From Nitrospirota bacterium (GTDB lineage Bacteria; Nitrospirota; Thermodesulfovibrionia; UBA6902; DSMQ01): a stretch of DNA of 32,450 bases. Positions within the stretch are counted from its first letter, which is position 1, and the number at the start of each line of letters is the position of its first letter. The notes under the pieces were generated by a model, which was given only the letters and a program-made list of their open reading frames with translations, was not told the DNA's origin and searched no databases. Shown here one piece after another: positions 2,349-30,950 of this stretch. Made by a program: the position numbers and the translations under genes. Location: the NCBI GenBank assembly GCA_016214355.1, contig JACROO010000005.1:1-32450 (forward strand). Reading direction: 5' to 3'.

Positions 2349-3967
2349 ATGGAAATTAAAAAGAAACTGGCTCAGGTCCCTTCCTCTCCGGGCATTTACA
2401 CAATGAAAGGGGTAAAAGAAAAGGTAATTTATGTAGGCAAGGCAAAAAACCTGAAAAACAGGCTTAAATCATATTTTCAGAAGTCTTCTTCGCTTGATGC
2501 AAGAAAATCTGCAATGGTCAGGGAAGTCAGGGGTTTTGACTATATTGTCACAGGCAATGAACTTGAGGCGCTCGTGCTTGAATCAAATTTTATAAAGAGG
2601 TTTAAGCCTAAATATAACATTATCCTGAGGGACGATAAGAATTATCCTTATCTCAGGCTCACTATAAATGAAGATTGGCCCCGGCTTGAAACGGCAAGAA
2701 GAATCACAAAAGACGGCTCGCTTTATTTCGGCCCTTTTGTGCCTGCAGGGGTTATGTGGGAAACTTTAAAATTTATAAGACGCACTTTCCCTCTGCGGAC
2801 ATGCAAGTATGACCTTGAAAAACCTTTCAGGCCATGCATACAGTACCAGATGGGAAGATGCCTTGCCCCATGTGCAGATGACCGCAGAAAAGAGACCGAC
2901 CATAAGCGGTATATGGAAACCGTTAATGAAGTAAGGCTTTTTCTTCAGGGAGAAAAAAAAGAACTCCTTTTAACCATGCAAGACAGGATGCAGAAGTTTT
3001 CCGATGAACTCAGATTTGAGGAGGCGGCAGGGCTGAGGGACCGTATAAAAGCACTTGAAAAGGCATGGGAAACACAGAGGGTTATATCGCATGAATTAGG
3101 GGATATTGACGTTATTGGAATCTACAGGGAAAATCAGGAGGCGTCAATATTCATCCTCTTTGTAAGAAACGGCATGGTTATCGGACAAAACGATTTTTTC
3201 CTGAAAAAGCTCAACGGCATAAACAACAGCGAACTGTCAGCAAGTTTTATTGAACTGTTTTATTCAAAGGAGATGTTAATACCGCCTAAGGTTGTCCTTC
3301 CGTTCAAAGGCAATTTTGAGACACAGATACTCTGGCTCAGCGAAAAAAGAGGCAAACCTGTTAAATTTTTATGTGCACCGAAGCGCGCAGATAAAGAAGA
3401 GACTAAAGTGCTTAAAATGGCATCTGAAAACGCTTATCATTCATTTTTAAGGCATAAGGATACAGCAGCTAACGAGGTTATTTCAGAATTAAAAAATCTG
3501 TTGAATTTAAAAACAACTCCGCAGAGGATAGAGGCTATTGATGTCTCCAATATCTCAGGCTCCGAGGCAGTGGGTGCACTTATTGTATGGGAAGAAGGAA
3601 ATTTTATCAAAGATGATTACCGTCTTTTCAAAATAAAAACAGTCAAAGGGATTGATGATTTTGCTATGATAGGAGAGGTGGCAGGGAGGCATTTTAAAAA
3701 TCTTACGGCAGATAAACTGCCTCAGTTAATTCTCATTGACGGAGGGATGGGGCAGCTTGAGTCAGCCCTGAAAGCCATGAAGCCCTTTGAACTGCCGGTA
3801 GAAATTGCAGCAATTGCAAAAGAAAAAGACGGAAAGCCGGACAGGATATTTCTGCCCGAGAAAAACAGTGCGCAATAAGAAAGGCTTCTGTTGAAGAGAT
3901 AGCAACCATTAAGGGGATTAATAAAAAAATTGCAGAGAAAGTGCTTGAAGCGATTAAAAATACATAG
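2349..3967 (+). pseudogene. uvrC: Excinuclease ABC subunit C (uvrC), disrupted by an internal deletion of roughly 200 bp plus a frameshift
   Basis: The 2349-3878 ORF (509 aa) carries GIY-YIG (GIYTMKG...VIYVGKAKNLKNRLKSYF), the UVR domain (FEEAAGLRDRIKALE) and the start of the RNase H-like endonuclease domain (IEAIDVSNISG...LILIDGGMGQL). It stops at ...IFLPEKNSAQ*. The expected LLQRIRDEAHRFAI...GIG segment is absent. The final HhH (AIRKASVEEIATIKGINKKIAEKVLEAIKNT*) is readable at about 3872-3967 in a different frame. Confidence 0.75.
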
Positions 3968-4001
3968 GCATACATGCCATCAAAACCTTAATTGAGCTGT
4001 T

Positions 4002-4056
4002 ATTCCGCACTTGCCTGCCCTCGAAGTCCTTAATCGGGGGATGCGGAATCCAGAAA
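4002..4056. repeat. Family-B element (ATTCCGCA ... TGCGGAATCCAGAAA hairpin)
   Basis: An 8-bp stem attccgca/tgcggaat, followed by the ggaatccagaaa tail also present at 17153-17165. It sits directly upstream of the pfkB-like RBS (AGGAGG). Confidence 0.65.
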
Positions 4057-4068
4057 TAGGAGGACAGC

Positions 4069-5001
4069 ATGAAAATTTATGTCTCAGGTTCTATGGCTTA
4101 CGACAGGATAATGGACTTCCCGGGAAAATTCTCTGACTACATCCTGCCTGACAAGATACACATCCTGAATGTGTGCTTCACTGTCAACGGGATGATTGAA
4201 AAATTCGGCGGGACCGCTGGGAATATCGCTTATTCCCTGAGTCTGCTCAAGACAGACCCTATTATACTTGCAACCATCGGCAAAGACTATAAACGTTATT
4301 ATAAGTGGCTGAAGAAAAATAAACTTTCAGCGGAGGGGATAAAAATAATCAATGAAGATTTTACTGCAGGGGCGTACATCACCACAGACAAGGCTGACAA
4401 CCAGATAACAGGATTTAATCCCGGCTCAATGAAATATCCTTCTGAATACAGGTTTGACAATGTTGACCCCAAAAATTCAATCGCTCTGATTGCACCCGGA
4501 AACCTTCAGGACATGGCTGAATATGCAAAAATATGTAAGAGTAGAAATATCAAATACGTCTGTGACCCCGGTCAGTCTCTCACTGCATGGGAAAAGAATG
4601 CTTTGACAGAGTGGATTGAGGGTTCAATGATTTTAATATCAAACGACTACGAACTTGAGATGATTATGAAGATAACAGGAATAAATAAGAAAGGTTTGTT
4701 AAAGCTGACAGAGATGATTATAACAACATTCGGTGAAAAAGGCTCGCTTATAAGCACCCCTGAATATGATATAAATGTTTCGCCTGCAAAGGTCTCTGAA
4801 GTCCTTGACCCTACAGGCGCAGGCGATGCATACAGGGCAGGACTGCTTAAAGGTATCGTTATGGGGAAGGACATTGAGACCTCTGCAAAGATGGGGGCCG
4901 TTGCCGCCACTTATGCGATTGAAAAATACGGGACGCAGGAGCATTATTATACATATGAAGAGTTTGTTGAGAGGTACAAGACGAATTTCGGGGAGATGTA
5001 G
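4069..5001 (+). CDS. PfkB-family carbohydrate/nucleoside kinase, resembling mycobacterial-type adenosine kinase
   Basis: 310 aa. The N-terminus IYVSGSMAYDRIMDFPGKFSDYILPDKIH...FGGTAGNIAYSLSLL resembles M. tuberculosis AdoK from memory. PfkB anion-hole motif DPTGAGDAYRAG. AGGAGG RBS. Confidence 0.8.
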   Translation: MKIYVSGSMAYDRIMDFPGKFSDYILPDKIHILNVCFTVNGMIEKFGGTAGNIAYSLSLLKTDPIILATIGKDYKRYYKWLKKNKLSAEGIKIINEDFTAGAYITTDKADNQITGFNPGSMKYPSEYRFDNVDPKNSIALIAPGNLQDMAEYAKICKSRNIKYVCDPGQSLTAWEKNALTEWIEGSMILISNDYELEMIMKITGINKKGLLKLTEMIITTFGEKGSLISTPEYDINVSPAKVSEVLDPTGAGDAYRAGLLKGIVMGKDIETSAKMGAVAATYAIEKYGTQEHYYTYEEFVERYKTNFGEM

Positions 5002-5011
5002 AGATAAATTT

Positions 5012-6085
5012 ATGATTAACGAAGCCGCATTAAAAACATACCTCAGAAAAAAGTTCAAAAATGTCCTCAGTGTGAACATACATAAGCTCGGTTCTGGTGT
5101 GCAGGGCGCGGGTTTTCTTGCTGAAATAAAAACAAAAAAAACAATTAAATCCTATGTGGTAAAAGCCCTCCGCTCTGATGGACTCGGACACGATTACCCT
5201 TCCGACAGGGCAGGAGTGTTTTTGCTTGACCTTGACGAGTTCAGGACGTTGCCGAAGCATGTCAGGGCGCTGGATGTGCTTGCAGAGATGAAAGACGGCT
5301 CGGTAAAATCCATTGGCGGCGGAATTGAATATTATCTCCTGATGGAAAAAGCAGAGGGTAGGCATTATTTCCATGACCTCTCTGAATTTGCGCATAAGAA
5401 AGGGCTTGAATCCTCTGATATTAAAAAAATTAAGGCAATGACATCATATCTTGCAGGGATTCATTCAATAAAAAAAGACTCCCGCCATCTTTACTTTAGA
5501 AAAATAAGAGACACCATCGGGCACGGCGAATGCCTGATGGGAGTCTTTGACACATATCCTGAAGGTGTTATCTCTTCCAAAGAGATGGCAGACATAGAAA
5601 AAAAATGCATTGACTGGAGGGCAAGACTGAAATCTAAAACCCACCGCCTCTGCCAGATACACGGAGACTTTCATCCGGGGAATATTTGGTTTAAAGCAGT
5701 TGACAGTTCACTGTCAACTGTCAACTGTCAACCCGACTTCGTTTTGCTTGACCGCAGTAGGGGTCCGTGGGGGGATGCGGCGGATGATGTGACTGCTCTG
5801 ACAATAAATTACATCTTTTTCTCTATAAATCATTATAGTAAACTTCATGGCACATATCTTGAGGCGATAAAATTATTTTTTGAGGATTACATTGAAAAAA
5901 CCGGAGATACCGAACTTTATGAAGTTGTTGCACCCTTCTTTGCATTCAGGGGCGTAGTCGTGGGAAATCCTGTCTTTTATCCAAAAGTATCGCATAAAAA
6001 CAGGCGCAGGATTTTTAACTTTGTGCACGGAGTGCTGGAGGATGAGTCATTCAGGATTGAAAGGGTGAATGAGTATATCTTATGA
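5012..6085 (+). CDS. Aminoglycoside-phosphotransferase-fold (protein-kinase-like) small-molecule kinase, substrate unknown
   Basis: Catalytic loop IHGDFHPGNIW and downstream LLDRSRG (compare APH(3') HGDLGDSNIF...IDLGRSG). The track ORF begins at 4775 inside pfkB. ATG 5012 (MINEAALKTYL) is the first start after the pfkB stop. Confidence 0.7.
   Translation: MINEAALKTYLRKKFKNVLSVNIHKLGSGVQGAGFLAEIKTKKTIKSYVVKALRSDGLGHDYPSDRAGVFLLDLDEFRTLPKHVRALDVLAEMKDGSVKSIGGGIEYYLLMEKAEGRHYFHDLSEFAHKKGLESSDIKKIKAMTSYLAGIHSIKKDSRHLYFRKIRDTIGHGECLMGVFDTYPEGVISSKEMADIEKKCIDWRARLKSKTHRLCQIHGDFHPGNIWFKAVDSSLSTVNCQPDFVLLDRSRGPWGDAADDVTALTINYIFFSINHYSKLHGTYLEAIKLFFEDYIEKTGDTELYEVVAPFFAFRGVVVGNPVFYPKVSHKNRRRIFNFVHGVLEDESFRIERVNEYIL
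5699..5732. repeat. CTGTCAA-type heptamer array inside the kinase CDS
   Basis: gttgacagttcactgtcaactgtcaactgtcaac is partly self-complementary. The same unit recurs at 7451-7485. Confidence 0.85.
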
Positions 6086-6901: not shown

Positions 6902-7025
6902 AAAACCACAGAGGGCACAGAGACACAATTCATTGTAAATTTATCAATACAAATTTTACATTTAAAATTTAAACTGATAAATGCTAATTTTTCAATGTAT
7001 GTTTTTCTCCGTGTTCTCTGTGGTT
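6902..7025. terminator. Long-range inverted CACAGAG-type repeat pair filling the convergent suhB-like / mqnA gap; possible bidirectional terminator hairpin
   Basis: AACCACAGAG (6904-6913) pairs perfectly with CTCTGTGGTT (7016-7025). Weaker pairing continues inward (ggcacagaga / tctccgtgtt), and the loop is about 75 nt and AT-rich. The right arm overlaps the mqnA stop codon. Confidence 0.4.
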
Positions 7026-7968
7026 AATCCCTTTTCTTAAAATCAGCAAACACATACTTCTCAAACAGCTTCAAACCTTCCATATGCCTCTCGGTAAAGT
7101 CGTATGATATGCCTTTCCAGTAAGTAACAAGCTCTTTTCCACTTAACCACTTTCTCTGCAGTGCATATCGGGATATCAAAGAAAAATTTTTATGTGCAAA
7201 CTTTTTTGCAGCAATTAAATCAGAAGAAAGACTTTTAAGAGGCTCTTTCTTCTCTAAGAGTGTTTCGTTTCGCACAATCCAGAGGGCAAAAACAAAAGGC
7301 AGTCCGGTGTGCTTGAACCATAAATCTCCAAGATCGTAAATATAAAATCCCCCCTCACCCCCCTTTGACAAAGGGGGGAAGGGGGGATTTGAGTGATGAG
7401 TGATGAGTGATGAGTGAGATGTCAAAAAACAGCCGTCAGCGGTTTTTTTATTGACTGACAACTGTGAACTGTCAACTGTCAACTGTTTTTTCGCTTTCAT
7501 CGCATCATCCCCTATAAACAGGCAGGCAGGGAAGTCAGAAAGCAGCCTTTTGAGAGAGCCGCTCTTTACTGTTACAAACCTGCATTTTAATGAATAAAAA
7601 TCCCTGAGAATAATCTTAAGAAGCACCACTGACGTCTCTGACTGCGATGATACTGCAATGCTTTTTTTATTGAGTGATTCCAGCGGATATTTTGAAAACA
7701 GGAATATACTGCGGATAGGTCCTTCTGAACTTATAGAAAGCCATGGGATAATTGAGTACTTTTTCCTGCGCCTCAAAAATTCAATGGATGATGACGGACT
7801 CAGGTCAATCTTTCCGTCCCTCAACATCTTATTCAGCGAGGAAGGCACGCCATTAATGAACTTATATTTTGAGTGGTCGCATTTATTTTCCAGATAATAG
7901 TAAATGGGAAATAAATTGGCGTATGAGATTTTGCCTATTCTGAGTAAAAGATTGTTTTTGTCCGGCAT
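7024..7968 (-). CDS. mqnA: Chorismate dehydratase MqnA (futalosine menaquinone pathway) carrying an in-frame repeat-derived insertion of about 47 aa
   Basis: 314 aa. RIGKISYANLFPIYYYL start, then IGDDAM ... YDLGDLWFKHTGLPFVFALWIV, typical of the MqnA/MqnD periplasmic-binding-like family. Residues QLTVDSSQLSVNKKTADGCFLTSHSSLITHHSNPPFPPLSKGGEGGF are encoded by repeat DNA. Confidence 0.75.
   Translation of the reverse strand: MPDKNNLLLRIGKISYANLFPIYYYLENKCDHSKYKFINGVPSSLNKMLRDGKIDLSPSSSIEFLRRRKKYSIIPWLSISSEGPIRSIFLFSKYPLESLNKKSIAVSSQSETSVVLLKIILRDFYSLKCRFVTVKSGSLKRLLSDFPACLFIGDDAMKAKKQLTVDSSQLSVNKKTADGCFLTSHSSLITHHSNPPFPPLSKGGEGGFYIYDLGDLWFKHTGLPFVFALWIVRNETLLEKKEPLKSLSSDLIAAKKFAHKNFSLISRYALQRKWLSGKELVTYWKGISYDFTERHMEGLKLFEKYVFADFKKRD
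7344..7485. repeat. Composite repeat block inside mqnA: family-A palindrome, GAGTGAT heptamers, an A/T-flanked hairpin, and CTGTCAA heptamers
   Basis: 7344-7390 is aaaatcccccctcaccccccTTTGaCAAAggggggaaggggggattt, a near-perfect 47-nt palindrome. 7391-7421 is gagtgat x3 plus a partial unit. 7421-7455 is gtcaaaaaacagccgtcagcggtttttttattgac. 7451-7485 is ttgactgacaactgtgaactgtcaactgtcaactg. Confidence 0.9.
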
Positions 7969-8019
7969 TCAATAATTTTAGCACAAAACTTGTTTTTGTT
8001 GCGGAGACATTTTTGCCGT

Positions 8020-8049
8020 CTTGCATCCTGCAACTTGCATCTTGTATCC
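8020..8049. repeat. CTTGCAT-type heptamer array
   Basis: cttgcat cctgcaa cttgcat cttgtat cc, in the divergent mqnA / DUF401-like intergenic region. It is related to 14090-14118. Confidence 0.8.
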
Positions 8050-8057
8050 TTATTTTT

Positions 8058-9251
8058 ATGATTGACCTTCTCAAAATCACATCGGTATTCATAATCATAG
8101 TCTTCCTCTTAAAAAGGCGCTGGAACCTCGGGCTTGTAATGGCACTGTCTTCCGTAATCCTATCAATTTTCTATCTGCTCACCCCCGAGGATTTTTTCAA
8201 TGCCGTTTTAAAGGCATCTACTGACAAAACGACCATTGTCCTGATCGTCGCCCTGACACTTATCAGGGTATTTGAAAACATCATGAGAAAGAGGGGGATA
8301 ATGCAGGAGATGATGGACTCATTCAGGGGAATGGTTATGGACAGGAGGGTCTTAATGGCGTCAATGCCTGCCTTAATCGGGCTTTTGCCCTCAATGGGCG
8401 GTGCGCTTTTTTCAGCACCGATGGTAGAAGAGGCATCAAAAGGGATTAAAATATCGCCTGAAAAAAAAGCATTTATAAATTACTGGTTCAGGCATCCGTG
8501 GGAGTTTACGCTTCCGCTTTATCCGGGAGTTGTCCTCGCATCTGCGATAGGCGGCTTTCATCTGAGGGATTTGATAATTGCCAATCTGCCTTATGCAATA
8601 TGTCTGGTAGTGGCAGGGATTCTCTGGGGACTCAGAGGAATCGGAATTCACAGAGAAGGATTTAAAAAAATCACTGCACGCGGGCTTTTGAGTTTTCTGC
8701 CTCTGACGCTGATTCTTCTGATGGTAATTGTCTTTCATCTTGACCTGTCAATCAGCCTCGGCGTTGCTATTTTAGGCTTACTGGCAGTTTTCAGATATTC
8801 TTTCAGGGATATTGCTGAAACAATCAAAGAAGGGCTTTCTTTGGAGATTTTTGCAATCATCTTAGGCGTAATGACATTCAAAGCGGTCCTTAATAGTTCA
8901 GGCGCGGTCTCCAATATAAGCACTTTTTTTTCAAATGAAGGCATTCCTGTACTGCCTGTCCTTTTTATCATCCCTTTTATCTCCGGTCTTCTTACAGGAC
9001 TAACAGTAGGTTTTATAGGAAGCACATTCCCAATTATCTTAGGGCTTGAAGACACACAGAATATAGCCGCTATCTCATTTGCCTTTGCATCAGGTTATGC
9101 AGGTGTCCTGCTCTCGCCGGTTCATTTATGTCTTGTGCTTACAAGGGAGTATTTCAAGGCTAACATGGCAGGTGTTTACAGCCTGATAATCAGGGGAGTG
9201 GTGTTGATTATGCTGGTAGCGCTGGTGGGGTATTTTGTCAGGGCGTTGTAG
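8058..9251 (+). CDS. Polytopic inner-membrane protein, probably DUF401 family (unknown transporter)
   Basis: At least 10 hydrophobic segments. The motif LPSMGGALFSAPMV ... NYWFRHPWEFTLPLYPG matches my recollection of DUF401. The track start at 8013 (TTG) would translate the heptamer array, so ATG 8058 (MIDLLKITSVF) is preferred. Confidence 0.5.
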   Translation: MIDLLKITSVFIIIVFLLKRRWNLGLVMALSSVILSIFYLLTPEDFFNAVLKASTDKTTIVLIVALTLIRVFENIMRKRGIMQEMMDSFRGMVMDRRVLMASMPALIGLLPSMGGALFSAPMVEEASKGIKISPEKKAFINYWFRHPWEFTLPLYPGVVLASAIGGFHLRDLIIANLPYAICLVVAGILWGLRGIGIHREGFKKITARGLLSFLPLTLILLMVIVFHLDLSISLGVAILGLLAVFRYSFRDIAETIKEGLSLEIFAIILGVMTFKAVLNSSGAVSNISTFFSNEGIPVLPVLFIIPFISGLLTGLTVGFIGSTFPIILGLEDTQNIAAISFAFASGYAGVLLSPVHLCLVLTREYFKANMAGVYSLIIRGVVLIMLVALVGYFVRAL

Positions 9252-9595: not shown

Positions 9596-10498
9596 TTGAA
9601 CAAATTCATTGAACAATTCACTGATTCATTAAAGGCAGAGCGTGATGTGTCTCCTCATACGCTCAGGGCATACACAAAAGACCTGACAGAGTTTTTTTTA
9701 TTTATAGATAAAAAACTAAAGGAAATTGACAACCTTGATATAAGGAGTTTCCTCGCATCGCTTTACAGCAGGAAACTCAAGAAATCATCCATCGCAAGAA
9801 AGCTCGCAACCATCAGGTCATTTCTGAAATACCTAAACAGGGAAGGCTATGTGAAAAATAACCCTGCAAAACTCGTCTCAAGCCCCAAATTGCAAAAGGC
9901 ACTGCCAAGGTTTCTTACCATTGATGAAGTATTTTCCCTTATTGATGCCCCCAAGGGTGATACTTTCAGTGCGTCAAGGGACAAGGCAATCCTTGAACTC
10001 CTTTACTCCTCAGGGCTGAGAGTTTCTGAATTAACAAACATTGATATGGGTGATTTTGACATAAAAGAATCCCTTGTCAGGGTAAAAGGCAAAGGCAAGA
10101 AAGAAAGAATAGTGCCCATCGGCTCAAAGGCAGTGGAGGCGATTAAAAACTACCTTCCCGAAAGGATACTCCTGAAGAAAAAGTCTCAGGCACTGTTTCT
10201 CAATAACCGCGGGGAGCGGTTGACAGAAAGGAGTGTCAGACGTATAGTAGTTAAATACAGCAGGATGATTGCCCTTAAGGACCGGCTTGGTCCGCACACT
10301 CTAAGGCATACATGTGCAACACATCTTCTTCACAGCGGTGCAGACCTGAGGTCAATTCAGGAATTGTTAGGGCATTCATCACTTTCAACAACCCAGAAAT
10401 ATACCCATGTGGATATTGCCCATATTATGGAGGTTTATGATAAGGCGCATCCGATGGCTAAAAATAGTGAACAGTTAAAAGTGAAGAGTGAAAAGTGA
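9596..10498 (+). CDS. xerC: Tyrosine recombinase XerC/XerD
   Basis: 300 aa with a TTG start. [12 protein letters not shown] (core-binding domain), and catalytic region GLRVSEL ... [12 protein letters not shown] ... [16 protein letters not shown]. Conserved xerC-hslV-hslU synteny. Confidence 0.9.
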
Positions 10499-10500
10499 AG
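10463..10500. repeat. AGTGAAN-type heptamer array at the xerC/hslV junction
   Basis: aatagtg aacagtt aaaagtg aagagtg aaaagtg aag. It encodes the XerC tail [11 protein letters not shown] and its TGA stop. Same family as 28573-28609 and 30165-30196. Confidence 0.85.
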
Positions 10501-12653: not shown

Positions 12654-13994
12654 ATGCTGAAACTTGCTACCTTTGAAAGGGGAATACATCCCGAAGAAGT
12701 CAAGGAATTAACTGAAGCGAGCCCTATCGTAAAGGCTGCCCTGCCTAAAAGAGTCGTAATCCCTTTAAGCCAGCATACAGGCGCACCTGCAAAACCTGAA
12801 GTCGTAATAGGAGACCTTGTTAAAAGAAATCAGCTTATAGGCTCCGGACAGGGTTTTGTTTCAGCATCTGTGCATGCATCTATATCCGGCAAGGTTATCG
12901 CTATTGGCAGCTTCCCCCATCCTTCAGGAAGAATGATACAATCAATAGTTATTGAGGGCGATGGGAAAGACGAGGAGATGTCTCTAAAAGAAACTCCTGA
13001 TTATCTAAATCTCAGCGCTGATGAGATTAAAGCCCTTATAAAAGATGCCGGAATAGTCGGACTCGGAGGAGCGGCTTTTCCCACAAATGTAAAACTCTCT
13101 CCGCCAAAAGAAAAGCCAATAGATACAGTCATCCTTAATGGTGCAGAATGCGAGCCCTATCTCACTGCTGACCACAGGCTGATGTTAGAGCAGCCTGAGG
13201 GGATTGTTGCCGGCTTAAAGATTATTATGAAGACGCTTGGCGTAACCAAAGGCTATATCGGCATAGAAAATAATAAGCCTGATGCTATAGAGGCAATGAA
13301 AAAGGCAGTAAGCAGTGAAGAAAGTGCTTACTCCTTACTGCCTACTCCTTACTCCATTGAAGTTTATCCCTTGAAAGTAAAGTACCCGCAGGGCGCTGAA
13401 AAGATGCTTATAAATGCAATTAAAGACAGGGAGGTTCCATCAAGAGGACTACCGATGGATGTCGGCGTTGTTGTCCAGAATGTCGGGACTGCCTTTGCTG
13501 TTTATGAAGCTGTGCGCTACGGCAAACCGCTTATTGAAAGGATTGTTACTGTCACCGGCAGGGGGATAAAAGAACCTAAAAACATGATGGTGCGGATTGG
13601 AACGCTTATGTCAGAGCTTATAGAACAGTGCGGCGGTTTTACTGACGGCGCAGTTAAGGTCATAGCCGGCGGACCGATGATGGGATTTGCACAGTGGAGC
13701 CTTGATATCCCTGTGCTGAAAGGCACCTCAGGAATTCTGGTTTTAACAGAAAAAGATTATGTCTCTTCAGAAGAGTATCTTCCCTGCATAAGGTGCGGAA
13801 ACTGCATAGATATATGCCCGATGGGGCTTAATCCGTCAATGCTCAGCATCCTTTCTGAGAAAGGACGCTATGAGGAGGCAAAGGAATATAACCTGTTTGA
13901 CTGCTTTGAGTGCGGCTCATGCGCATACGTCTGCCCCTCAAACAGGCCAATAGTGCAGTTTATGAGACTGGCAAAGTCTATGGTGAAACCATGA
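12654..13994 (+). CDS. rnfC: Rnf electron-transport complex subunit C
   Basis: 446 aa. FERGIHPEE start, NGAECEPYLTADHRLM, and two 4Fe-4S motifs CIRCGNCIDICP and CFECGSCAYVCP. Confidence 0.92.
   Translation: MLKLATFERGIHPEEVKELTEASPIVKAALPKRVVIPLSQHTGAPAKPEVVIGDLVKRNQLIGSGQGFVSASVHASISGKVIAIGSFPHPSGRMIQSIVIEGDGKDEEMSLKETPDYLNLSADEIKALIKDAGIVGLGGAAFPTNVKLSPPKEKPIDTVILNGAECEPYLTADHRLMLEQPEGIVAGLKIIMKTLGVTKGYIGIENNKPDAIEAMKKAVSSEESAYSLLPTPYSIEVYPLKVKYPQGAEKMLINAIKDREVPSRGLPMDVGVVVQNVGTAFAVYEAVRYGKPLIERIVTVTGRGIKEPKNMMVRIGTLMSELIEQCGGFTDGAVKVIAGGPMMGFAQWSLDIPVLKGTSGILVLTEKDYVSSEEYLPCIRCGNCIDICPMGLNPSMLSILSEKGRYEEAKEYNLFDCFECGSCAYVCPSNRPIVQFMRLAKSMVKP
13327..13355. repeat. CTTACTN heptamer array inside rnfC
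   Basis: cttactc cttactg cctactc cttactc c, translated in frame as (A)YSLLPTPYS. Same unit family as 25857-25902. Confidence 0.8.
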
Positions 13995-13999
13995 AAATA

Positions 14000-14163
14000 A
14001 AGGATTCAAGGAGTCAAGGGATCAAGGATTCAAGTGAACATAACTGGATACAGGATTCACGATTCATGATACATGATATTTATTTTTTTGTATCGTGTAT
14101 CTTGCATCTTGTATCGTGCCGTTTTGCACTCGAACCCTCGAATCCTTGAATCCTGGAACCCTT
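14000..14163. repeat. Nested inverted arrays (8-mer AAGGATTC outer, 7-mer ATGATAC/GTATCTT inner) between rnfC and rnfD
   Basis: Left outer: aaggattc aaggagtc aagggatc aaggattc aag (14000-14034). Right outer: ctcgaacc ctcgaatc cttgaatc ctggaacc ctt (14129-14163). Inner arms 14051-14078 and 14090-14118 are about 80% complementary by eye. Confidence 0.9.
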
Positions 14164-17135: not shown

Positions 17136-17204
17136 GTCATTCCCACGAAAGTGGGAATCCAGAAAGAAGAAAATATGGATTCCTGCTTCCGCAGGAATGA
17201 CAGG
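17136..17204. repeat. Family-B double-hairpin element
   Basis: gtcATTCCCACgaaaGTGGGAATccag ... ggATTCCTGCttccGCAGGAATgac has two 8-bp stems. The outer gtcattcc/ggaatgac arms are complementary. Confidence 0.85.
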
Positions 17205-18617: not shown

Positions 18618-19163
18618 ATGGCAAAGAAAAAAACTAAAAAAACAATAGCAAAAAAGGCAACAAAAAAAGGCAAGAAACAAACTCCAAAAGCGCCTAAAAA
18701 ACAGGTGAAACCAAAAAAAGTTGTAAAAGAAACCAAAAAAATAGACGTTAAGAAACCAGCAGCTAAGAAAACAGAAACCAAAAAAATAGGCAAAGTCTCC
18801 CCAAGGGAAAAGAAAATACTTGAGATTAAGAAAAGTCTCTTGTCTCAGAAAGAAATGCTGCTTAAAGAAGCTGAAGAGGCGTTAAACAGCCTGCCCGGTG
18901 AGATAAACTTTCCTGATATGGGGGACCAGGCCACCGCAGAAACTGACAGGAATTTCATGCTCAGGTTAAGGGACAGGGAGCGTATGCTTCTGAAAAAGAT
19001 TGACGAAACGCTTGAGCAGATTGACAGCGCAACTTATGGCATCTGCAGTGAATGCGGCAATGGAATAGACATCAAGCGTCTGGAGGCAAGACCTGTCACT
19101 ACCTTATGCATAGACTGCAAGGTTCGTCAGGAAGAAGAAGAACGGATAGCAGAAGGCAGATAA
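18618..19163 (+). CDS. dksA: DksA-type RNA-polymerase-binding zinc-finger protein with a lysine-rich N-terminal extension of about 60 aa
   Basis: The C-terminal 120 aa parallel E. coli DksA: tip DMGDQA (DxxDxA), LRLRDRERMLLKKIDETLEQI, and C4 finger CSECGNGIDIKRLEARPVTTLCIDC. The N-terminus is MAKKKTKKTIAKKATKKGKKQTPKAPKKQVKPKK... GAGG RBS. Confidence 0.85.
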   Translation: MAKKKTKKTIAKKATKKGKKQTPKAPKKQVKPKKVVKETKKIDVKKPAAKKTETKKIGKVSPREKKILEIKKSLLSQKEMLLKEAEEALNSLPGEINFPDMGDQATAETDRNFMLRLRDRERMLLKKIDETLEQIDSATYGICSECGNGIDIKRLEARPVTTLCIDCKVRQEEEERIAEGR

Positions 19164-19190
19164 TTAAAACAACGTAATAAATCAATTTGC

Positions 19191-19421
19191 AAAATCCCCC
19201 TACATCCCCCTTTTCCAAAGGGGGAATTTTTCTGCGGGTTCAGGTTTGTAACCTGAACCCAATATTCAATCCGTTGTCAACCCATATTTATCAAATAAAC
19301 GGGATAAACGGGTTCAATTTTGTAAATTGAACCCGCAAGAAGGGGAATTTTCCCCTCTATCAAGAGGGGATTAAGGGGTGTGTTTCCCCTCTTTAGTAAA
19401 GAGGGGTTAGGGGAGATTTTA
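19191..19421. repeat. 231-bp nested cluster: three family-A palindromes flanking two GGGTTCA hairpins
   Basis: Family-A copies at 19191-19231, 19341-19378 and 19383-19421. Hairpins GGGTTCAGGTT-tgt-AACCTGAACCC (19236-19260) and CGGGTTCAATTT-tgt-AAATTGAACCCG (19309-19335, a perfect 12-bp stem) are arranged symmetrically. Confidence 0.9.
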
Positions 19422-19431
19422 GAAACAGACT

Positions 19432-20232
19432 CTATTTAATCGTATAGTCCATCTTGTCTCTTAACGCGTCTCCGGCTATATTAAAACAGACAGTTGCAAT
19501 AAATATAGCACCGCCTGCAAACACCACCATCCACGGCGAAGACAATATATAAACCCTGTTAAGGCTAATCATTGAGCCCCATGTCGGCATTGGAGGCTGT
19601 GCCCCAAGCCCCAGGAAACTCAGGGCTGACTCCGTAAGCAGATAACCTCCTAATTTAAGCCCTAACACAACAAGACTAAGAGGCAGGCAGTTGGGGAAAA
19701 TATGCCTGATGATAATCCTTGCATCCGAGCATCCAATTGTCCGCGCAGCATCAATATAAGGTGATTCCTTGAGACTCAGTACATGCCCTCTGATAAGCCT
19801 TGCAAAAGATGACCAGCCGACAGCCGCAATAGCTATCACAACTGTAAAAATACCCGGGGGAAAGATTACAGAAATTCCTATCGCAAGCAAAAGTGAGGGA
19901 AATGAGAGTATAAGGTCAACAAACATCATAACAGCCATATCTATCCTGCCGCCGTAATAACCCGACATAAGACCCACTGCAAGCCCTATACAGACGGAAA
20001 TAATACCTGCCACTAATGCAATACCAACTGAATACCTCCCTCCGTAAAGGACACGGCTTAAAATATCCCTGCCCTTATTGTCAGTCCCGAATGGATGCTT
20101 GAGACTTGGAGGCTCTTTAAGGTTATCAAGGTCTATTTTCAAAGGGTCATACGGCGTAAGCACAGGGGCAAATACCGAGCATAATACCAAAATAATCAGG
20201 ATTGCGAGTGCTGTTTTACTTATAAGACTCAC
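19432..20232 (-). CDS. ABC transporter permease, OppC/DppC (peptide/nickel) family
   Basis: 266 aa with a GTG start. PFGTDNKGRDILSRVLYGGR is typical of DppC. It has the EAA-loop region and overlaps the upstream permease by 17 nt. Confidence 0.85.
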   Translation of the reverse strand: MSLISKTALAILIILVLCSVFAPVLTPYDPLKIDLDNLKEPPSLKHPFGTDNKGRDILSRVLYGGRYSVGIALVAGIISVCIGLAVGLMSGYYGGRIDMAVMMFVDLILSFPSLLLAIGISVIFPPGIFTVVIAIAAVGWSSFARLIRGHVLSLKESPYIDAARTIGCSDARIIIRHIFPNCLPLSLVVLGLKLGGYLLTESALSFLGLGAQPPMPTWGSMISLNRVYILSSPWMVVFAGGAIFIATVCFNIAGDALRDKMDYTIK

Positions 20233-21469: not shown

Positions 21470-21630
21470 ATTGAGGCTCTTGCAAAAGTCGTCATTCCCG
21501 TGCAAACGGGAATCAAGAAGTTTTTGCAGCATATTGAAAAGACTGGATTCCCACTGGAGTTTACCCTCATGAAAATGGGGGTGAGAATGACAAATTCTTC
21601 TCTTTTTATGACTTTTGCAAGAGACTCAAT
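21470..21630. mobile_element. MITE-like 161-bp element: 23-bp terminal inverted repeats enclosing a family-B double hairpin
   Basis: Left end ATTGAGGCTCTTGCAAAAGTCGTCAT against right end ATGACTTTTGCAAGAGACTCAAT. Inside are gtcattCCCGTgcaaACGGGaatc and ACCCTCATgaaaATGGGGGTgagaatgac. No coding capacity. Confidence 0.6.
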
Positions 21631-25830: not shown

Positions 25831-28569
25831 AAATTGAATATAGCAACAGCGTTCTTCTTGCTGCTTACTGTTTACTGCTTACTGCCTACCGCTACTATTT
25901 ACGCCTCGGATTCCGAAAAAGTAATTAAGGCAATTGAGGTGCAAGGGGTCAGGCGCATAAGACCCGAAGAATTAATAGAAATGATATGCCTTGCTGTTGG
26001 AGACCCGCTGGATAAAGATGTACTGCACACAGGCATAAAAAGGGCATTTAAAAAAGGGGTGTTCCTTGACATAAAGGCGGTAACCGAACCTTTACAAGAC
26101 GGGGTAAAATTGAAATATATAGTCAATGAAATACCTGTAATCAACAGAATACTCATTGAAGGTAATAAGTTTATTACTAAAAAAAGGATTAAAGATTTCC
26201 TTGCAAAGGCACCTAAGCATAGTTTGGCAGAAGGCGGGGATTTTATCCTTACAGGGCAGGATGTAAGAGACGCAGAACTCGCACTTTTAAACTTCTACGA
26301 CAAAAAGGGCGTTCCTAAAGTAAAGTTAAAAATTGAGGCAAAAAAAGACAAGACTCCATACAAAATTAACATTCGTATTATGATAGAAGAAGGGAAACCA
26401 ATAATTATTAAAACCGTATCTGCCCCCCCCGAGATTAAAGGTATAATGAAAGTGTCGGAAGGCAGCATCTTTGACAGAGAACTTGTGGATAAGGATATAG
26501 CTGAGATTAAGCAATATTACAGAGAGCAGGGATACATCAACCCCATCGTTGGCCCTTATGAATTCAAAGACGGCGAACTCTCCATCCCCGTTGCTAAGGG
26601 ATTAAAACTTGAAATAGATTTCAAGGGAAATACGATTTTCAGTTCAAAAAGCCTCATAAAAAAAATGCCGTTCATGGAAGACGAAGAGGTGACAGATAAA
26701 TTAATGGACGATGCGGCAAATCTCATTAAACAAATTTACTGGCAGGAGGGATATAATCAGGTTCAGGTTGCCGGCGGCATGGAAACAAAAGGGGATGCTG
26801 TAAAGGTAACTTTTTTTATATTTGAAGACAAAAAAGTTATTCTAAGAGAGATAATATTTGAAGGCATTACTATCCCGGCTCAAACCATAGAAGGAATTAT
26901 CCCGCTGAAAAAACAAAAACCTTTTGATGAAACCATATTAGACAGCAGTATAGAATCCATAATCAGTTTTTACAACGGACTTGGTTATCTTGACGCTGAT
27001 ATCAAAGAAGTGAAGAAAGAATTTAAAAATGACTACAAAGAACTTAAACTCATATTCGCAGTCAATGAAGGAGGACAGACAAAAATTGAAAAGATAAACA
27101 TTTCAGGCAACAAGGACATCAGTTTAAATGATATAAATAAAGTTTTGATATTAAATGAACCCGCTCCATACAATGCTGTTGATATTGAAGATGCAAGATA
27201 CAGGATTTTATCCCTTTACTCGCGTCTCGGTTATGCCGATGCCCGGGTTGAGATAGAAAAAATAATTGAAAACGGCAGGGCATTTGTTACTTTTAAAATA
27301 ACAGAAGGCAGGCGTTTTTCAATAAGAAAAATCGTCATTCGCGGCAATAAAAAGACAAAGGATACGATTATCAGGAGGGAATTTGATATAAAAGAAGGAG
27401 AACCATACAATTACGAGAAACTCTTAAGCGCCAAACAACGACTTTATAAACTCGGACTCTTTACCGAGGTTTCCATTGAGCCAATTGAGACAACTACGCC
27501 TCAACCCAAACGACAGGAGATTAATAAGGATAATTTAAAAGACCTTCTCGTCTCTTTAAAAGAAGGGAATGCCGGGGCGGTTGAAGTCGGCATTGGTTAC
27601 GGCGACTACGAAAGTCTCCGGGGCTTTTTTGATATAAGTTACCGCAACATGGGCGGCTATAATAAACAAATCGGATTAAGGACAGAACTGAGTTCAATAG
27701 AAAAAAGACATGTCTTAAGCTTTAAAGAGCCCCGATTTTTAAACAAGCCTCAATTGCCTCTAAAGATTTTTCTTACACAAGAAAATAAACGGGCAATAAA
27801 TCTGGATACAAAAGATGTGATGTATAAAATAGACAAGACCTCTTTGCTTTTAGGTGTTGATAAAGAATTAACCGAAAGATTAAAGACAAACCTAAACTAT
27901 GAATATTCCATTGTTGATACAAAGGACGTTAAACAAGGGGTAATCCTTAGTAAAGAAGATACAGGAACCCTCGGTATAAGCAGTATTTCGTCTTCTCTGT
28001 TCTACGACACAAGGGATAATCCATTTGACCCTACGGCTGGTTCTCTTAAAGGCATTGTGTTGAAGCTCGCTTCGGGTGCCCTCTTATCTGAGACAGAATT
28101 TATTAAAACAACTGTTCATGGCGCATGGTTTTTTAAGGTACAAAAGGGGCTTGTATTTGCCTTCTCTTTAAGGGGCGGCGGTGCTTACGGCCTGGGCGAA
28201 ACATCTGAACTGCCTCTGATTGAAAGATTTTTCCTCGGAGGCAGAACTACTGTAAGGGGATACAGTCAGGACACCCTCGGACCTAAAGGTGCTGAAGATA
28301 CACCTACAGGCGGTAATGCCTTTGCGATTGCAAATGTAGAACTCAGGATTTATCTCGTAAAAGGCCTGGGGCTGGTAACATTTGTTGACAGCGGGAATGT
28401 ATGGAAAGACACAAATGATATAGATACAGATTTAAAATATACCGCTGGAGGGGGAATAAGATACAATACACCTGTAGGCCCGTTCAGGCTTGATTATGGA
28501 CACAAATTAAATAAAGAAGGGGGTGAAAGCAGGGGTGAACTGCATTTCAGTCTCGGACATGCATTCTAA
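25771..28569 (+). CDS. bamA: Outer-membrane protein assembly factor BamA (Omp85, POTRA repeats plus beta-barrel)
   Basis: 932 aa. POTRA-like repeats (IKAIEVQGVRRI..., INRILIEGNKFI..., LREIIFEGITI..., IEKINISGNKDI..., IRKIVIRGNKKT...). Barrel motifs RFFLGGRTTVRGY and a C-terminal ...GELHFSLGHAF ending in Phe. The start is ambiguous (25771 or 25807). Confidence 0.9.
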   Translation: MTADEKTRLRARMSTDKTQIKLNIATAFFLLLTVYCLLPTATIYASDSEKVIKAIEVQGVRRIRPEELIEMICLAVGDPLDKDVLHTGIKRAFKKGVFLDIKAVTEPLQDGVKLKYIVNEIPVINRILIEGNKFITKKRIKDFLAKAPKHSLAEGGDFILTGQDVRDAELALLNFYDKKGVPKVKLKIEAKKDKTPYKINIRIMIEEGKPIIIKTVSAPPEIKGIMKVSEGSIFDRELVDKDIAEIKQYYREQGYINPIVGPYEFKDGELSIPVAKGLKLEIDFKGNTIFSSKSLIKKMPFMEDEEVTDKLMDDAANLIKQIYWQEGYNQVQVAGGMETKGDAVKVTFFIFEDKKVILREIIFEGITIPAQTIEGIIPLKKQKPFDETILDSSIESIISFYNGLGYLDADIKEVKKEFKNDYKELKLIFAVNEGGQTKIEKINISGNKDISLNDINKVLILNEPAPYNAVDIEDARYRILSLYSRLGYADARVEIEKIIENGRAFVTFKITEGRRFSIRKIVIRGNKKTKDTIIRREFDIKEGEPYNYEKLLSAKQRLYKLGLFTEVSIEPIETTTPQPKRQEINKDNLKDLLVSLKEGNAGAVEVGIGYGDYESLRGFFDISYRNMGGYNKQIGLRTELSSIEKRHVLSFKEPRFLNKPQLPLKIFLTQENKRAINLDTKDVMYKIDKTSLLLGVDKELTERLKTNLNYEYSIVDTKDVKQGVILSKEDTGTLGISSISSSLFYDTRDNPFDPTAGSLKGIVLKLASGALLSETEFIKTTVHGAWFFKVQKGLVFAFSLRGGGAYGLGETSELPLIERFFLGGRTTVRGYSQDTLGPKGAEDTPTGGNAFAIANVELRIYLVKGLGLVTFVDSGNVWKDTNDIDTDLKYTAGGGIRYNTPVGPFRLDYGHKLNKEGGESRGELHFSLGHAF
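25857..25902. repeat. CTTACTG heptamer array encoding the BamA signal-peptide core
   Basis: cttgctg cttactg tttactg cttactg cctaccg ctactat ttac, translated as LLLTVYCLLPTATIY. Confidence 0.85.
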
Positions 28570-29158
28570 AAACAGTGAAAAGTGTAAAGTGAATAGTGAA
28601 CAGTGTAAGAATACACCAACAACAGCGAGGAATATTTTTTCAGTTATAATTCATCATTCATTATTCCTCATATTTTTTCTCATCACTCATCACTCATTAC
28701 TCATCACTGCTGTTAATGCTGAGGTTATTGAACGTATTGTAGCCGTCGTAGATGATGATGCCATCACGCTCAGCGAATTTGATAATGCCCTTCAAACTGC
28801 AGTAAATCCCGAAGCAAAAACAGATGTCCTGAACGGAATGATTAACAGGATTTTACTTTTAAGACAGGCTAAAAAATTCAAACTGGAAGATTCTCAGGCA
28901 GCGGATGACAATGCCCTTATTAACGATTATATAGAAAAAAGGTTAAAGGCACTTATACGGATATCTCCTGAAGAAATTGAGCCGTTTTATGAAAAGAACA
29001 AGAAATCATTCGGTGATAAAGACTTCTATGATGCAAGAAATGAGATAGAGACATATCTGATAGAAAAAGAGTTAAACAGGAAACTGCTTGAACATATAAA
29101 AGAATTAAGAGAAAAATCTTATATAAGGATACAGATGGAAAATGAAAACCCTGATTAA
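28559..29158 (+). CDS. SurA N-terminal-domain-like periplasmic chaperone (no PPIase domain)
   Basis: After a hydrophobic N-terminus, ...AVNA/EVIERIVAVVDDDAITLSEFDNAL resembles the SurA N-domain start (IVAvVnd..It.sE). The ATG at 28559 overlaps the bamA end. A GTG at 28586 is an alternative start. Confidence 0.55.
   Translation: MHSKNSEKCKVNSEQCKNTPTTARNIFSVIIHHSLFLIFFLITHHSLLITAVNAEVIERIVAVVDDDAITLSEFDNALQTAVNPEAKTDVLNGMINRILLLRQAKKFKLEDSQAADDNALINDYIEKRLKALIRISPEEIEPFYEKNKKSFGDKDFYDARNEIETYLIEKELNRKLLEHIKELREKSYIRIQMENENPD
28573..28609. repeat. AGTGAAN heptamer array after the bamA stop
   Basis: cagtgaa aagtgta aagtgaa tagtgaa cagtgta ag. Same family and transcriptional orientation as 10463-10500 and 30165-30196. 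Confidence 0.85.
28650..28709. repeat. TCATCAC / TTCATTA heptamer arrays
   Basis: ttcatca ttcatta ttcctca ... tcatcac tcatcac tcattac tcatcac tg. This is roughly the reverse complement of the AGTGA(T/A)G units, and the same unit occurs at 7391-7421. It is translated as IIHHSLFLIFFLITHHSLLIT. Confidence 0.85.
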
Positions 29159-29626: not shown

Positions 29627-30175
29627 TTACCTCCTTAATTCCTGCAAACCTCTCCTCAGTGCAGATTCATTAATCTGTACCGTGTCCTTTTTACGTTCCG
29701 AAATTATCTCCCTTAATGTACTGCAGGCTGTGTCAACATTTATGATACCGGTCCTCCCGATAAGCGCACCGAGAAGCACCATGTTTGCAGCCTGGGGGTT
29801 GCCGAGTTCTCCTGCAACATCAGTAGCCTTTATCCGGATAATTTCTATGTCTGAACGTCCGGGTGAACTTTTAATTAAAGACGCATTCATTATTAAAATG
29901 CCGTCTGGCTTCAACCGCGGGACAAATCTCTGCAGTGAGGCATCATTCATAATCAATAGTGCATCGGGATTCTTTACAACAGGAGAGCCTACCATCTCGT
30001 CCGATATTATCACTGTGCAGTTGGCTGTGCCGCCCCTTATTTCCGCGCCATAAGACGGAAACCATGTCACATCCCTGCCCTCCAGCATCGCAGAATGCGC
30101 GAGCAGCTTTCCGGTAAATAAAATCCCCTGCCCTCCAAATCCTGCGATGATAAGCTGTAAAAAATTACTGTTCAC
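29627..30175 (-). CDS. 2-oxoacid:ferredoxin oxidoreductase gamma subunit
   Basis: 182 aa with a GTG start. IIAGFGGQGILFTGKLLAHSAM ... YGAEIRGGTANCTVIIS is the typical POR/KOR gamma signature. Confidence 0.8.
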   Translation of the reverse strand: MNSNFLQLIIAGFGGQGILFTGKLLAHSAMLEGRDVTWFPSYGAEIRGGTANCTVIISDEMVGSPVVKNPDALLIMNDASLQRFVPRLKPDGILIMNASLIKSSPGRSDIEIIRIKATDVAGELGNPQAANMVLLGALIGRTGIINVDTACSTLREIISERKKDTVQINESALRRGLQELRR

Positions 30176-30196
30176 TATTCACCATTCACTGTTGAC
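30165..30196. repeat. AGTGAAN heptamer array (minus-strand sense) at the korB/korC junction
   Basis: On the minus strand: gtcaa cagtgaa tggtgaa tagtgaa cagtaa. It contains the korB TGA stop (30186-30188) and the korC GTG start (30173-30175). Confidence 0.85.
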
Positions 30197-30950
30197 TATA
30201 TTTATCCTTAATCACGCCGAGCGGGAAAACAGGAATCATGTTCTTCTGCATCCACAATAAAGCCTCATGGGAACTCATCCACCAGTCAGTCGGACAGGGC
30301 GAAAGCACTTCAACAAGGCTGAACCCTTTTTCATCAAGCTGGCACTGAAAGGCTTTTTTAATGGCTTTTTTTGTAATCAAGATGTTTTTAGTGGAATCAA
30401 GAGACGTCCTGCAGATGAAACTTGGTCCTTCAAGCGTACAAAGCATTTCAGATATTTTTATAGGAAAGCCTGCTGTCTTCCCTTCCCTGCCCTGTTTAGT
30501 AGTTGTTGTCTTTTGTCCTATAAGGGTAGTAGGAGCCATCTGCCCGCCTGTCATACCGTATGTAGCGTTATTGACAAAGATAACGCTGAAATTTTCCCCT
30601 CTTGCAGCCGCATGTATTATTTCTGCTGTTCCTATCGCAGCAAGGTCCCCGTCTCCCTGATATGTAAAAACCAGCCTGTCTGGCAAAAGTCGCTTTATCG
30701 CAGTAGCCACAGCAGGGGGCCTCCCGTGAGCGGTCTCAATTACATCAAAATTAAAATAATCATATGCAAAGATAGCACAGCCTACAGGTGCAAAACCAAT
30801 CGTTTTTTCTCTTGCGCCAAGTTCATCAATTATCTCTGCAATGATTTTATGCAGCAGCCCATGCCCGCATCCTGCACAGAAACGAAAAGGAACGGGCTTC
30901 AGGCTTTTTGGTCTTTCGGTTATTTTTTTCACTTTAGTTCTTAGTTCCAA
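30186..30950 (-). CDS. 2-oxoacid:ferredoxin oxidoreductase beta subunit (TPP-binding)
   Basis: FCAGCGHG near the N-terminus and TPP motif GDGDLAAIGTAEIIHAAARGENFSVIFVNNATYGMTGGQ. The TTG start at 30950 lies within the repeat array. GTG at 30932 (MKKITERPK...) is equally plausible. Confidence 0.85.
   Translation of the reverse strand: MELRTKVKKITERPKSLKPVPFRFCAGCGHGLLHKIIAEIIDELGAREKTIGFAPVGCAIFAYDYFNFDVIETAHGRPPAVATAIKRLLPDRLVFTYQGDGDLAAIGTAEIIHAAARGENFSVIFVNNATYGMTGGQMAPTTLIGQKTTTTKQGREGKTAGFPIKISEMLCTLEGPSFICRTSLDSTKNILITKKAIKKAFQCQLDEKGFSLVEVLSPCPTDWWMSSHEALLWMQKNMIPVFPLGVIKDKYSQQ

Follow-up and report, generated by a model that had tools for sequence, protein, structure and literature searches.

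The window analysed here, the whole of a stretch of 32 450 nucleotides (contig JACROO010000005.1, positions 1–32 450), is a chromosomal fragment of an uncultured member of the Nitrospirota (Thermodesulfovibrionia) that carries uvrC, xerC, hslVU, rnfCDGEAB, dksA, tamB and bamA. Its mqnA gene, encoding chorismate dehydratase of the futalosine pathway, lies on the reverse strand as an intact open reading frame (ORF) of 314 amino acids (7024–7968). Within this gene a repeat-coded segment of 47 residues (Q162–F208; 7345–7485, reverse strand) was delimited by alignment to structures in the PDB and by the spans of homologues. A sequence-only reading of the same DNA had placed a composite of repeats in mqnA at 7338–7492; the composite was confirmed, with bounds slightly too wide for the 47-residue peptide. 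The linker at this position has nine residues in the outgroups, close to the ten or so given earlier as normal, and the net excess in the window is about 42 residues (126 nt). The frame is kept and contains no stop codon, as had been read: across the segment one frame in six is open and it is that of mqnA.

In the sense of the gene, the segment starts with an imperfect array of about five CAGTTGA heptamers (7451–7486, reverse strand; coding QLTVDSSQLSVN), for which Tandem Repeats Finder (TRF) gave 4.7 copies of ACTGTCA with 88% match on the forward strand at 7454–7486. A perfect CAGTTGA array would place TGA in frame at the third unit, where the window has TCA. This substitution was considered as proof of selection in place; the argument was weakened by the array copy starting at 5700, which has the identical TTCA. 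The array is followed by a private 30-nt block (7420–7449, reverse strand; AAAAAAACCGCTGACGGCTGTTTTTTGACA, coding KKTADGCFLT) that was recognized by comparison with relatives and by folding as a small A/T-flanked hairpin. The 3′ arm of this block (CTGTTTTTT in the gene sense) is complementary to AAAAAACAG at the start of the insert (forward strand 7483–7491), and the block is terminator-like on the forward strand. The second array consists of four TCACTCA units (7390–7417, reverse strand; coding SHSSLITHHS; TRF, 100% match, TGAGTGA × 4.0 on the forward strand). Its units were said to be open in all three frames, and TCACTCA, read directly off the sequence, is indeed stop-free in every frame. 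The last part is a GC-rich palindrome of 46–47 nt (7344–7390, no strand assigned) that can form a hairpin of about 21 bp, reads AAAAT-C6-TCA-C6-TTTGACAAA-G6-AA-G6-ATTT on the forward strand and codes NPPFPPLSKGGEGGF, residues 194–208 of MqnA. In the mRNA the palindrome hairpin is followed by AUUUUAUAUU, an arrangement that resembles an intrinsic terminator on the sense strand. An example peptide of the predicted MqnA product is TADGCFLTSHSSLITHHSNPPFPPLSK. A single long hairpin formed by the left and right arrays was rejected for the window copy, in which their mutual pairing is poor, though it is good in the related loci L082 and L003.

The identity of the product was settled by its Pfam and PDB matches. 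PF02621 (VitK2_biosynth/MqnA) was the sole Pfam family matched (E = 1.5e-64; 218 bits against a cut-off of 26), in two stretches flanking the insert, and no NCBIfam family was matched at E ≤ 0.01. The PDB matches were 7ahr and 2nxo. In the alignment to the Streptomyces coelicolor chorismate dehydratase structure, query residues 3–160 correspond to chain residues 3–159 and query residues 203–303 to chain residues 163–263; the chain advances by just three residues between the two blocks and about 42 MqnA residues are without a counterpart. The comparison with homologues and family profiles proposed in the sequence-only reading thus gave Q162–F208 as the boundaries of the insert. The ligand-binding residues of the S. 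coelicolor enzyme, N17, S86, S109/T111/S112 and G151 (PMC9672406), align to N18, S87, S110/T112/S113 and G153, which are invariant in the alignment, and all 68 invariant columns of a 32-sequence alignment are kept in the window protein. Compared with the nearest relative (locus L081, protein P0002), the ratio of nonsynonymous to synonymous substitution rates (dN/dS, ω) is 0.19 overall and 0.13 for each of the two flanks of the insert, which shows purifying selection on mqnA.

The AlphaFold2 model of MqnA shows a confident MqnA fold, with a mean predicted local distance difference test score (pLDDT) of 85.5 and a predicted template-modelling (TM) score of 0.83. Foldseek superposed it on 7ahr with a target TM score of 0.88 and a root-mean-square deviation of 2.0 Å; together with the PF02621 score this assigns the protein to the Venus-flytrap fold with α-clamp. 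The insert sits between helix 153–170 (α6 of lobe 2) and strand 209–212. Its first part is modelled as an extension of α6, the N-terminus of which holds the ligand-binding Gly, and residues 173–205 have pLDDT <50 and no secondary structure. The structural check proposed earlier therefore placed the insert in a low-confidence loop after α6. In this model the insert would emerge at the distal end of α6, remote from both the active-site cleft and the dimer interface reported in PMC9672406.

Three outcomes had been offered for the gene: that the enzyme tolerates the loop, that the gene is inactivated, or that the segment is removed or bypassed at the RNA level. Removal or skipping of the segment, as an intron, an intein or by ribosomal bypassing of the type of T4 gene 60 or the GC-rich 'byp' elements of yeast mitochondria, would suit its strong structure, and GC-palindromic inserts in yeast mitochondrial genes are bypassed by the ribosome. 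The segment in mqnA, however, is open and in frame, so that there is nothing to skip, and no stop follows a take-off codon. At gathering thresholds Rfam reported just one tRNA in the window and no intron, riboswitch or other RNA family over the insert. An intein is opposed by the length, 47 residues being far below intein size, and by the Pfam scan, which gave no intein domain. RNA-level removal has neither support nor need, and we regard this group of explanations as barely conceivable.

The linker was then compared among 108 parsed homologues, the span being measured from the I of IGD to the W of DLGxLW. Spans ranged from 24 to 66 residues, with the 66 residues of the window the joint longest. 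Essentially all Geobacter/Desulfuromonadales loci and a few (the shortest) Nitrospirota have 24 residues; spans of 50–66 residues are common and some lineages are without an insert. Heptamer-periodic DNA occupies the linker in nearly all Thermodesulfovibrionia MqnA, with GC palindromes nested in it in several lineages. The loop peptides of the homologues are translated repeats (QLTVNS/QSTVNS or LSTVNCQL, HSSLITH/NSSLVTR, SYELRVKS and RAQSTEH, with NPPxPPxxKGGxGG in at least 12 sequences). In 30 loops the self-identity of the DNA was 0.50 at lag 7 and 0.41 at lag 14, compared with 0.24–0.26 in the flanking mqnA DNA. Thermodesulfovibrionia-like loci contained 18 arrays of period 7/14 in about 6 kb of loop sites and 34 in the other 304 kb or so. 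Spans of 24 + 7k residues were found in 33 of the 108 homologues against about 15 expected, in sequences that are phylogenetically related and not independent; they fit growth by 21-nt (three-heptamer) steps. Stepwise nesting was also seen within single clades, from KKLTPNSEL through KKLSAVSNQLSTPNSEL to KKLSAVSSQLSPHFNSPIIKGGHRGVNSKLLTPDSEL.

The mqnA site is thus an old, class-wide, heptamer-built hypervariable loop, and this is the main new finding of the analysis. The single insertion event of about 150 bp assumed in the sequence-only reading was not upheld; the version in the window is made up of at least three layers. An equivalent segment in unrelated lineages had been named as evidence against an insertion; what was found goes halfway, in that related lineages carry equivalent and partly orthologous arrays and the outgroups do not.

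Arrays of a 7-nt unit raise the case of a contingency locus, in which gain or loss of one unit would switch mqnA off and on. The perfect four-unit array, a unit length that is not a multiple of three and the change of array length over time are in its favour. The arrays, however, are short (4–4.7 units) and for the most part imperfect, the frame is kept in every one of the 108 homologues, close relatives differ by 21 nt, and mqnA is a housekeeping gene rather than a surface or restriction gene. In the genome and metagenome collections scanned, which yielded no strain of the same species and in which the nearest full-length MqnA has 76% amino-acid identity, no strain-level frameshifted mqnA alleles were found. 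Phase switching is highly improbable.

The layers were resolved by comparison with the relatives L164 (protein P0016), L082 (P0009), L166 (P0047), L081 (P0002) and L165 (P0011). In the first three, a left CAGTnnn array and a right CACTCnT array are in phase with those of the window and the palindrome is lacking; L081 and L165 have the palindrome at the codon position of the window and no arrays. The 30-nt block is absent from L164, L082, L081 and L165. Orthologous TCACTC(A/G)T arrays are present in mqnA of L011, L086, L103, L149, L164, L082 and L166. The window combines both arrays and the palindrome with its private 30 nt, which lie exactly between the arrays, and the spans add up accordingly (43 + 10 + 15 − 2 = 66 residues).

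Apart from the central base, the palindromes of the window and of L081 are reverse complements of each other, and their asymmetric bulges have changed places: L081 has C6-TCA-C6…G6-AA-G6 where the window has C6-TT-C6…G6-TGA-G6, and the central frame differs (NPPSPPFVKGGKGGF in L081 and NPPFPPLSKGGEGGF in the window). The TGA of the window palindrome would be a stop in the frame of L081. The swap means either inversion or re-insertion of the palindrome or a compensated frameshift. Neither the palindrome nor the 90-nt difference to L081 is bordered by a target-site duplication.

A chimeric join through short repeats during assembly was considered as well, as the repeats of the segment recur elsewhere in the contig. 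Each of them is at most 47 nt long, shorter than a read, and both halves of mqnA are in phase and in order. Independent assemblies from ENA, JGI, NCBI and Logan have the palindrome or orthologous arrays at the very same codon position, and an artefact is extremely unlikely.

The two sides of the insert differ in their distance from the nearest relatives. L081 and L167, which derive from one ENA sample, are syntenic with the window at about 91–93% nucleotide identity, and the synteny with L081 stops just 3′ of mqnA. Within mqnA the identity to L081 is 90.7% upstream and 81.9% downstream of the insert (the two window stretches set against L081 being 7055–7395 and 7482–8060), and dS is 0.33 upstream and 0.96 downstream at equal ω (0.13). 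In the N-terminal part of MqnA, P0002 is by far the closest sequence (90%, with at most 78% for any other); in the C-terminal part it is barely closer (76%) than many others (72–73%). Judged from the sequences, a recombination crossover at or near the repeat block is probably the simplest reading. These data also bear on gene inactivation. A young pseudogene, with mqnA inactivated by the insert, could be argued from an insert that is the joint longest among the 108 homologues and from a C-terminal third that is more diverged from the nearest relative (76% amino-acid identity against 90%). The downstream divergence is in dS, however, and therefore points to recombination and not to relaxation; neither a stop nor a frameshift interrupts mqnA, its catalytic and invariant residues have been retained, ω is 0.13 on either side of the insert, and spans of 50–66 residues are common. 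Inactivation thus found no support and is very unlikely.

The repeat families were compared with chance expectation. The core of the palindrome family (family A) has six matches in the window against 0.04 expected; besides the mqnA copy, family-A copies were located at 7–47, 56–94, 19191–19229, 19346–19426 and 32291–32331. Two of the six cores lie inside ORFs, namely the mqnA copy and that at 32291–32331. The family was also found in L004, L006, L054, L081 and L083 and is therefore widespread in the phylum. The family-A core (C5–6 TTT NNN AAA G5–6) was noted in other Nitrospirota loci at 4803–4823 of L083 and at 2011–2060 and 6299–6385 of L004; that of L083 falls in a called gene (3921–5123), which makes at least one intragenic case among these loci. 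The GAGTGAT dimer occurs five times in the window (0.00 expected), with a second locus at 28682–28702, where TRF found a sister array in inverse orientation in the spacer after bamA (28679–28708, reverse strand). The CTGTCAA dimer occurs four times (0.01 expected), with a second locus at 5711–5731; here the sister array (5700–5732, forward strand; TRF) is in frame (SSLSTVNCQ) inside the ORF at 4775–6085. Arrays of period 7/14 number 16.8 per 100 kb in Thermodesulfovibrionia-like loci and 2.3 in loci of Geobacter type (about sevenfold), the mqnA loop arrays being counted.

A fuzzy search over the window and about 1 Mb of related loci turned up no other copy of the hairpin at 7420–7449. The hairpin was therefore not retained as a repeat family, and a 72% match at 9673–9711 was taken as chance. 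The statement that the segment is encoded entirely by repeat DNA thus applies to the two arrays and the palindrome, which have other copies, and fails for the hairpin. The segment is a mosaic, as had been proposed; the two arrays, both AGT/ACT-core heptamers, are probably related to each other.

Folding of the segment was compared with that of shuffled sequences and gave z-scores of −5.2 for RNA and −6.4 for DNA. The dominant elements of the fold are the palindrome hairpin (about 21 bp) and a stem in which AAAAAACAG, at the start of the insert, pairs with CUGUUUUUU of the 30-nt block. This raises co-option of the insert, whether of the loop peptide as a lineage-specific interaction or tethering loop, or of the GC hairpin with its U-tract and the array hairpin as an attenuator, pause or stability element tuning mqnA at the mRNA level. 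Such a role would agree with the strong fold (RNA z-score −5.2), the terminator-like hairpin and AUUUUAUAUU on the sense strand, the retention of repeat-coded inserts at one site across the class and the modelling of the first part as an α6 extension. Close relatives, however, differ freely in the sequence, length and order of the parts and even in the way these are oriented, and some lineages are without any of them; no part is conserved like a functional element, the intergenic DNA is littered with these repeats, and the loop has pLDDT <50. We consider co-option unlikely.

The explanation that we favour, and hold to be probable, is that non-essential selfish or slippage-prone repeat DNA has been layered into a permissive surface linker of a functional MqnA and is translated as a largely disordered loop of about 47 residues. 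Among the three outcomes offered earlier, tolerance of the loop is preferred because of the loop in the AlphaFold model, the dN/dS of 0.13–0.19, the conserved catalytic residues and the roughly 100 homologues that have an insert at this position. No function need be assumed for the insert itself. An array-forming hairpin would have colonized the mqnA linker early in the class. Native sequence, copied in inverse orientation so as to form hairpins, would give rise to the arrays, which would expand and turn over by slipped-strand mispairing, and selection would pass just in-frame, stop-free states, with a typical change of 21 nt (three heptamers, 7 amino acids). Such a filter for frame and stops would account for the stop-free TCACTCA orientation and for the TCA found where a regular CAGTTGA array would have TGA. 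The REP-like GC palindrome (REP, repetitive extragenic palindrome) may have reached the edge of the array by transposition or recombination, the 30-nt hairpin may be a local inverted duplication of GTCAATAAAAAAAC produced by template switching, and the repeat block would have doubled as a recombination junction.

Several points weigh against this explanation. The terminator-like hairpin with AUUUUAUAUU means that the insert may carry a cost or a regulatory effect, though ribosomes trailing the polymerase would be expected to mask such a hairpin. The persistence of arrays at one site across the class could reflect benefit and not just tolerance. Inheritance rather than selection in place may account for the TTCA variant, by which the in-frame TGA is avoided, and the perfect TGAGTGA × 4 array could slip and frameshift mqnA. 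By every available sequence criterion mqnA is most likely functional, its translation and activity being predictions, and the window was taken as assembled.

The insert in rnfC provides a second case in a conserved enzyme. At 13305–13355 (forward strand), comparison of structures revealed a heptamer hairpin in which native GCAGTAAGCAGT is followed by its inverted copy, amplified as CTTACTC × 4. Compared with three solved RnfC structures, the window protein is longer by ten residues, which fall exactly at this hairpin; about 110 of 120 RnfC homologues have the insert-free length of 436 residues. The window and its roughly 91% identical relative L167 share nine extra nucleotides, to which each then added a different 21-nt block. 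The spacer between rnfC and rnfD holds 220 nt of nested inverted 8-/7-mer arrays in the window and measures 26 nt in L167. At 14000–14163 this spacer reads (AAGGATTC)n (GATACAT)n … (TGTATCG)n (CTCGAACC)n and forms a long periodic hairpin; these nested arrays, put at 190 nt, are missing from L167.

Beyond the favoured explanation, an active lineage-specific process may be at work, an idea that we put forward tentatively and as rather doubtful. Short native motifs with CAGT/ACTG cores would be copied inverted into hairpins and amplified in 7-nt units; under a frame filter this would remodel the surface loops of housekeeping proteins in quanta of seven residues and would create landing pads for REP-like palindromes as well as crossover points for recombination between alleles. 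The mqnA loop would be the oldest and most used case of such a proteome-wide mechanism, possibly driven by a RAYT-/IS200-like nuclease (RAYT, REP-associated tyrosine transposase). The Pfam scan, which was limited to the ORFs of the window, gave no RAYT (Y1 transposase).

Further repeats were observed in the window. The ORF at 4775–6085 (forward strand), the start of which overlaps pfkB, has no Pfam match; it contains CTGTCAA × 3 and an upstream inverted half-array between the kinase-like motifs HGDFHPGN and LLD, and its SSLSTVNCQ segment is probably a 7-residue insert. A partial ORF (31998–32450, forward strand), which runs off the window end and has no Pfam match, carries two hairpin repeats in frame, at 32220–32251 (VIARSEATKQS) and the family-A palindrome at 32291–32331 (SPSLAKRGEGRF); both fall in the linker of an apparent recombinase N-terminal region. 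Most heptamer arrays lie in short spacers directly upstream of start codons or across stop codons (8019–8048, 10466–10499, 25857–25893, 28574–28708, 30171–30189 and 30934–30967). The xerC ORF terminates within an AGTGAAA array just before hslV. The placement of the arrays resembles that of the TAACTGA arrays of Beggiatoaceae.

A further hairpin family, GTCATTCCC(N)GGGAATC / GGATTCC…GGAATGAC, was located at 17136–17201 and 21491–21591, in spacers after rnfA and near a tRNA gene. Between dksA and a permease gene (19163–19432) there is a cluster like a bacterial interspersed mosaic element (BIME), with at least five palindromes of two families (family A and TGCGGGTTCA…TGAACCC); L167 lacks a part of it (137 nt against 41 nt). 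The N-terminus of DksA has a lysine-rich extension of about 70 residues (18618–18830) that derives from 13-/15-nt tandem repeats (18650–18681 and 18728–18786).

Tandem repeats with units other than triplets are as a rule kept out of coding DNA or serve as on/off switches. In this uncultured but widespread anaerobic lineage, conserved enzymes contain heptamer arrays and REP-like palindromes that have been reshuffled within their genes and are predicted to be translated, and the heptamer-repeat phenomenon of cyanobacteria and Beggiatoaceae is extended to the Nitrospirota. For annotation, peptides such as NPPxPPxxKGGxGG or LSTVNCQ in proteins from metagenome-assembled genomes are real gene parts in this lineage and not necessarily errors of assembly or gene calling. 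For protein evolution, the linker offers a natural series of loop lengths, from 9 to 51 residues, at a single position of MqnA that is defined by structure, and the 21-nt gains between genomes about 91% identical are datable events. No change of the menaquinone biosynthesis pathway is implied. We regard this as a generalizable observation and not as a new principle.

Among known systems, the short tandemly repeated repetitive (STRR) heptanucleotide sequences of cyanobacteria were reportedly described by Mazel and coworkers in 1990. TAACTGA heptamer repeats occur in Beggiatoaceae, Cyanobacteria and Bacteroidetes (PMC4679880), and heptamers are over-represented among long simple sequence repeats according to Mrazek (2007), as quoted in PMC4679880 and PMC4692102. 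Dispersed heptamer arrays are found in cyanobacteria, Xanthomonas and Beggiatoaceae and are mostly intergenic (PMC4679880, PMC4692102). Where they fall within genes they tend to be at the ends of proteins or, in the Beggiatoaceae genome studied, in hypothetical ORFs (PMC4679880). The window arrays share with STRR and TAACTGA the head-to-tail 7-nt units, arrays of 2–6 units, the same unit at several loci and a place mostly in spacers upstream of start codons. As with TAACTGA, one orientation is stop-free (TCAGTTA, giving LSVISYQ there; CTGTCAA, giving LSTVNCQ here). The window units CTGTCAA and GAGTGAT differ from STRR1–3 and TAACTGA, with just the AACTG/CAGTT core in common. Unlike TAACTGA, the units are diverse (CAGTTGA, TGAGTGA, AGTGAAA, CTTACTC and others) and often form inverted array pairs, and unlike the heptamers of Beggiatoaceae they lie in the middle of conserved enzymes (MqnA, RnfC). 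Thermodesulfovibrionia are not among the reported lineages.

REP/BIME and REPIN elements are extragenic mosaics of short palindromes (PMC3116915, PMC12306157). The window palindromes are similar in being short, GC-rich and imperfect (20–47 nt), with A/T flanks, many copies, mosaic clusters (19163–19432) and a terminator-like character. Whereas REP is extragenic by definition, the mqnA copy is coding and the copy at 32291–32331 also lies in an ORF. Most copies in the window have three G/C runs; that in mqnA, with four runs, is a complete double-armed palindrome. It is not a miniature inverted-repeat transposable element, a class that has terminal inverted repeats and a target-site duplication; as stated above, there is no such duplication at the palindrome or at the place where L081 differs by 90 nt. 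Very small mobile hairpin-forming elements of Nostoc, described by Elhai and coworkers in 2008, are said to insert into other repeats and to form nested mosaics; the phylum and the sequences differ here. The GC clusters of yeast mitochondria and 'byp' elements are likewise said to be GC palindromes that enter coding genes without destroying them. Some 'byp' elements are reportedly skipped by the ribosome; the mqnA frame, in contrast, is open and has no sign of skipping. For Thermodesulfovibrio or Nitrospirota, nothing specific on such repeats was found in the literature.

The closest counterpart is the Rickettsia palindromic element (RPE), a parallel already drawn in the sequence-only reading and an apt one, since in both cases repeats are translated within genes at structurally permissive sites. 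In the summary of Ogata et al. (2000) given in PMC10969869, RPEs are dispersed palindromes that lie in frame in housekeeping genes, are read through at positions compatible with the fold and also occur between genes. The palindrome family of mqnA is similarly dispersed in genes and between them, and the insert is in frame, stop-free and in a surface position. An RPE is a single unit of about 100–150 bp with a family-specific peptide, whereas the mqnA block consists of nested units of at most 47 nt, in a host from the Nitrospirota (Thermodesulfovibrionia) and not Rickettsia; the mqnA loop, moreover, has been occupied and remodelled across the class rather than hit once. The mqnA case resembles an RPE insertion in how it works, without being one.

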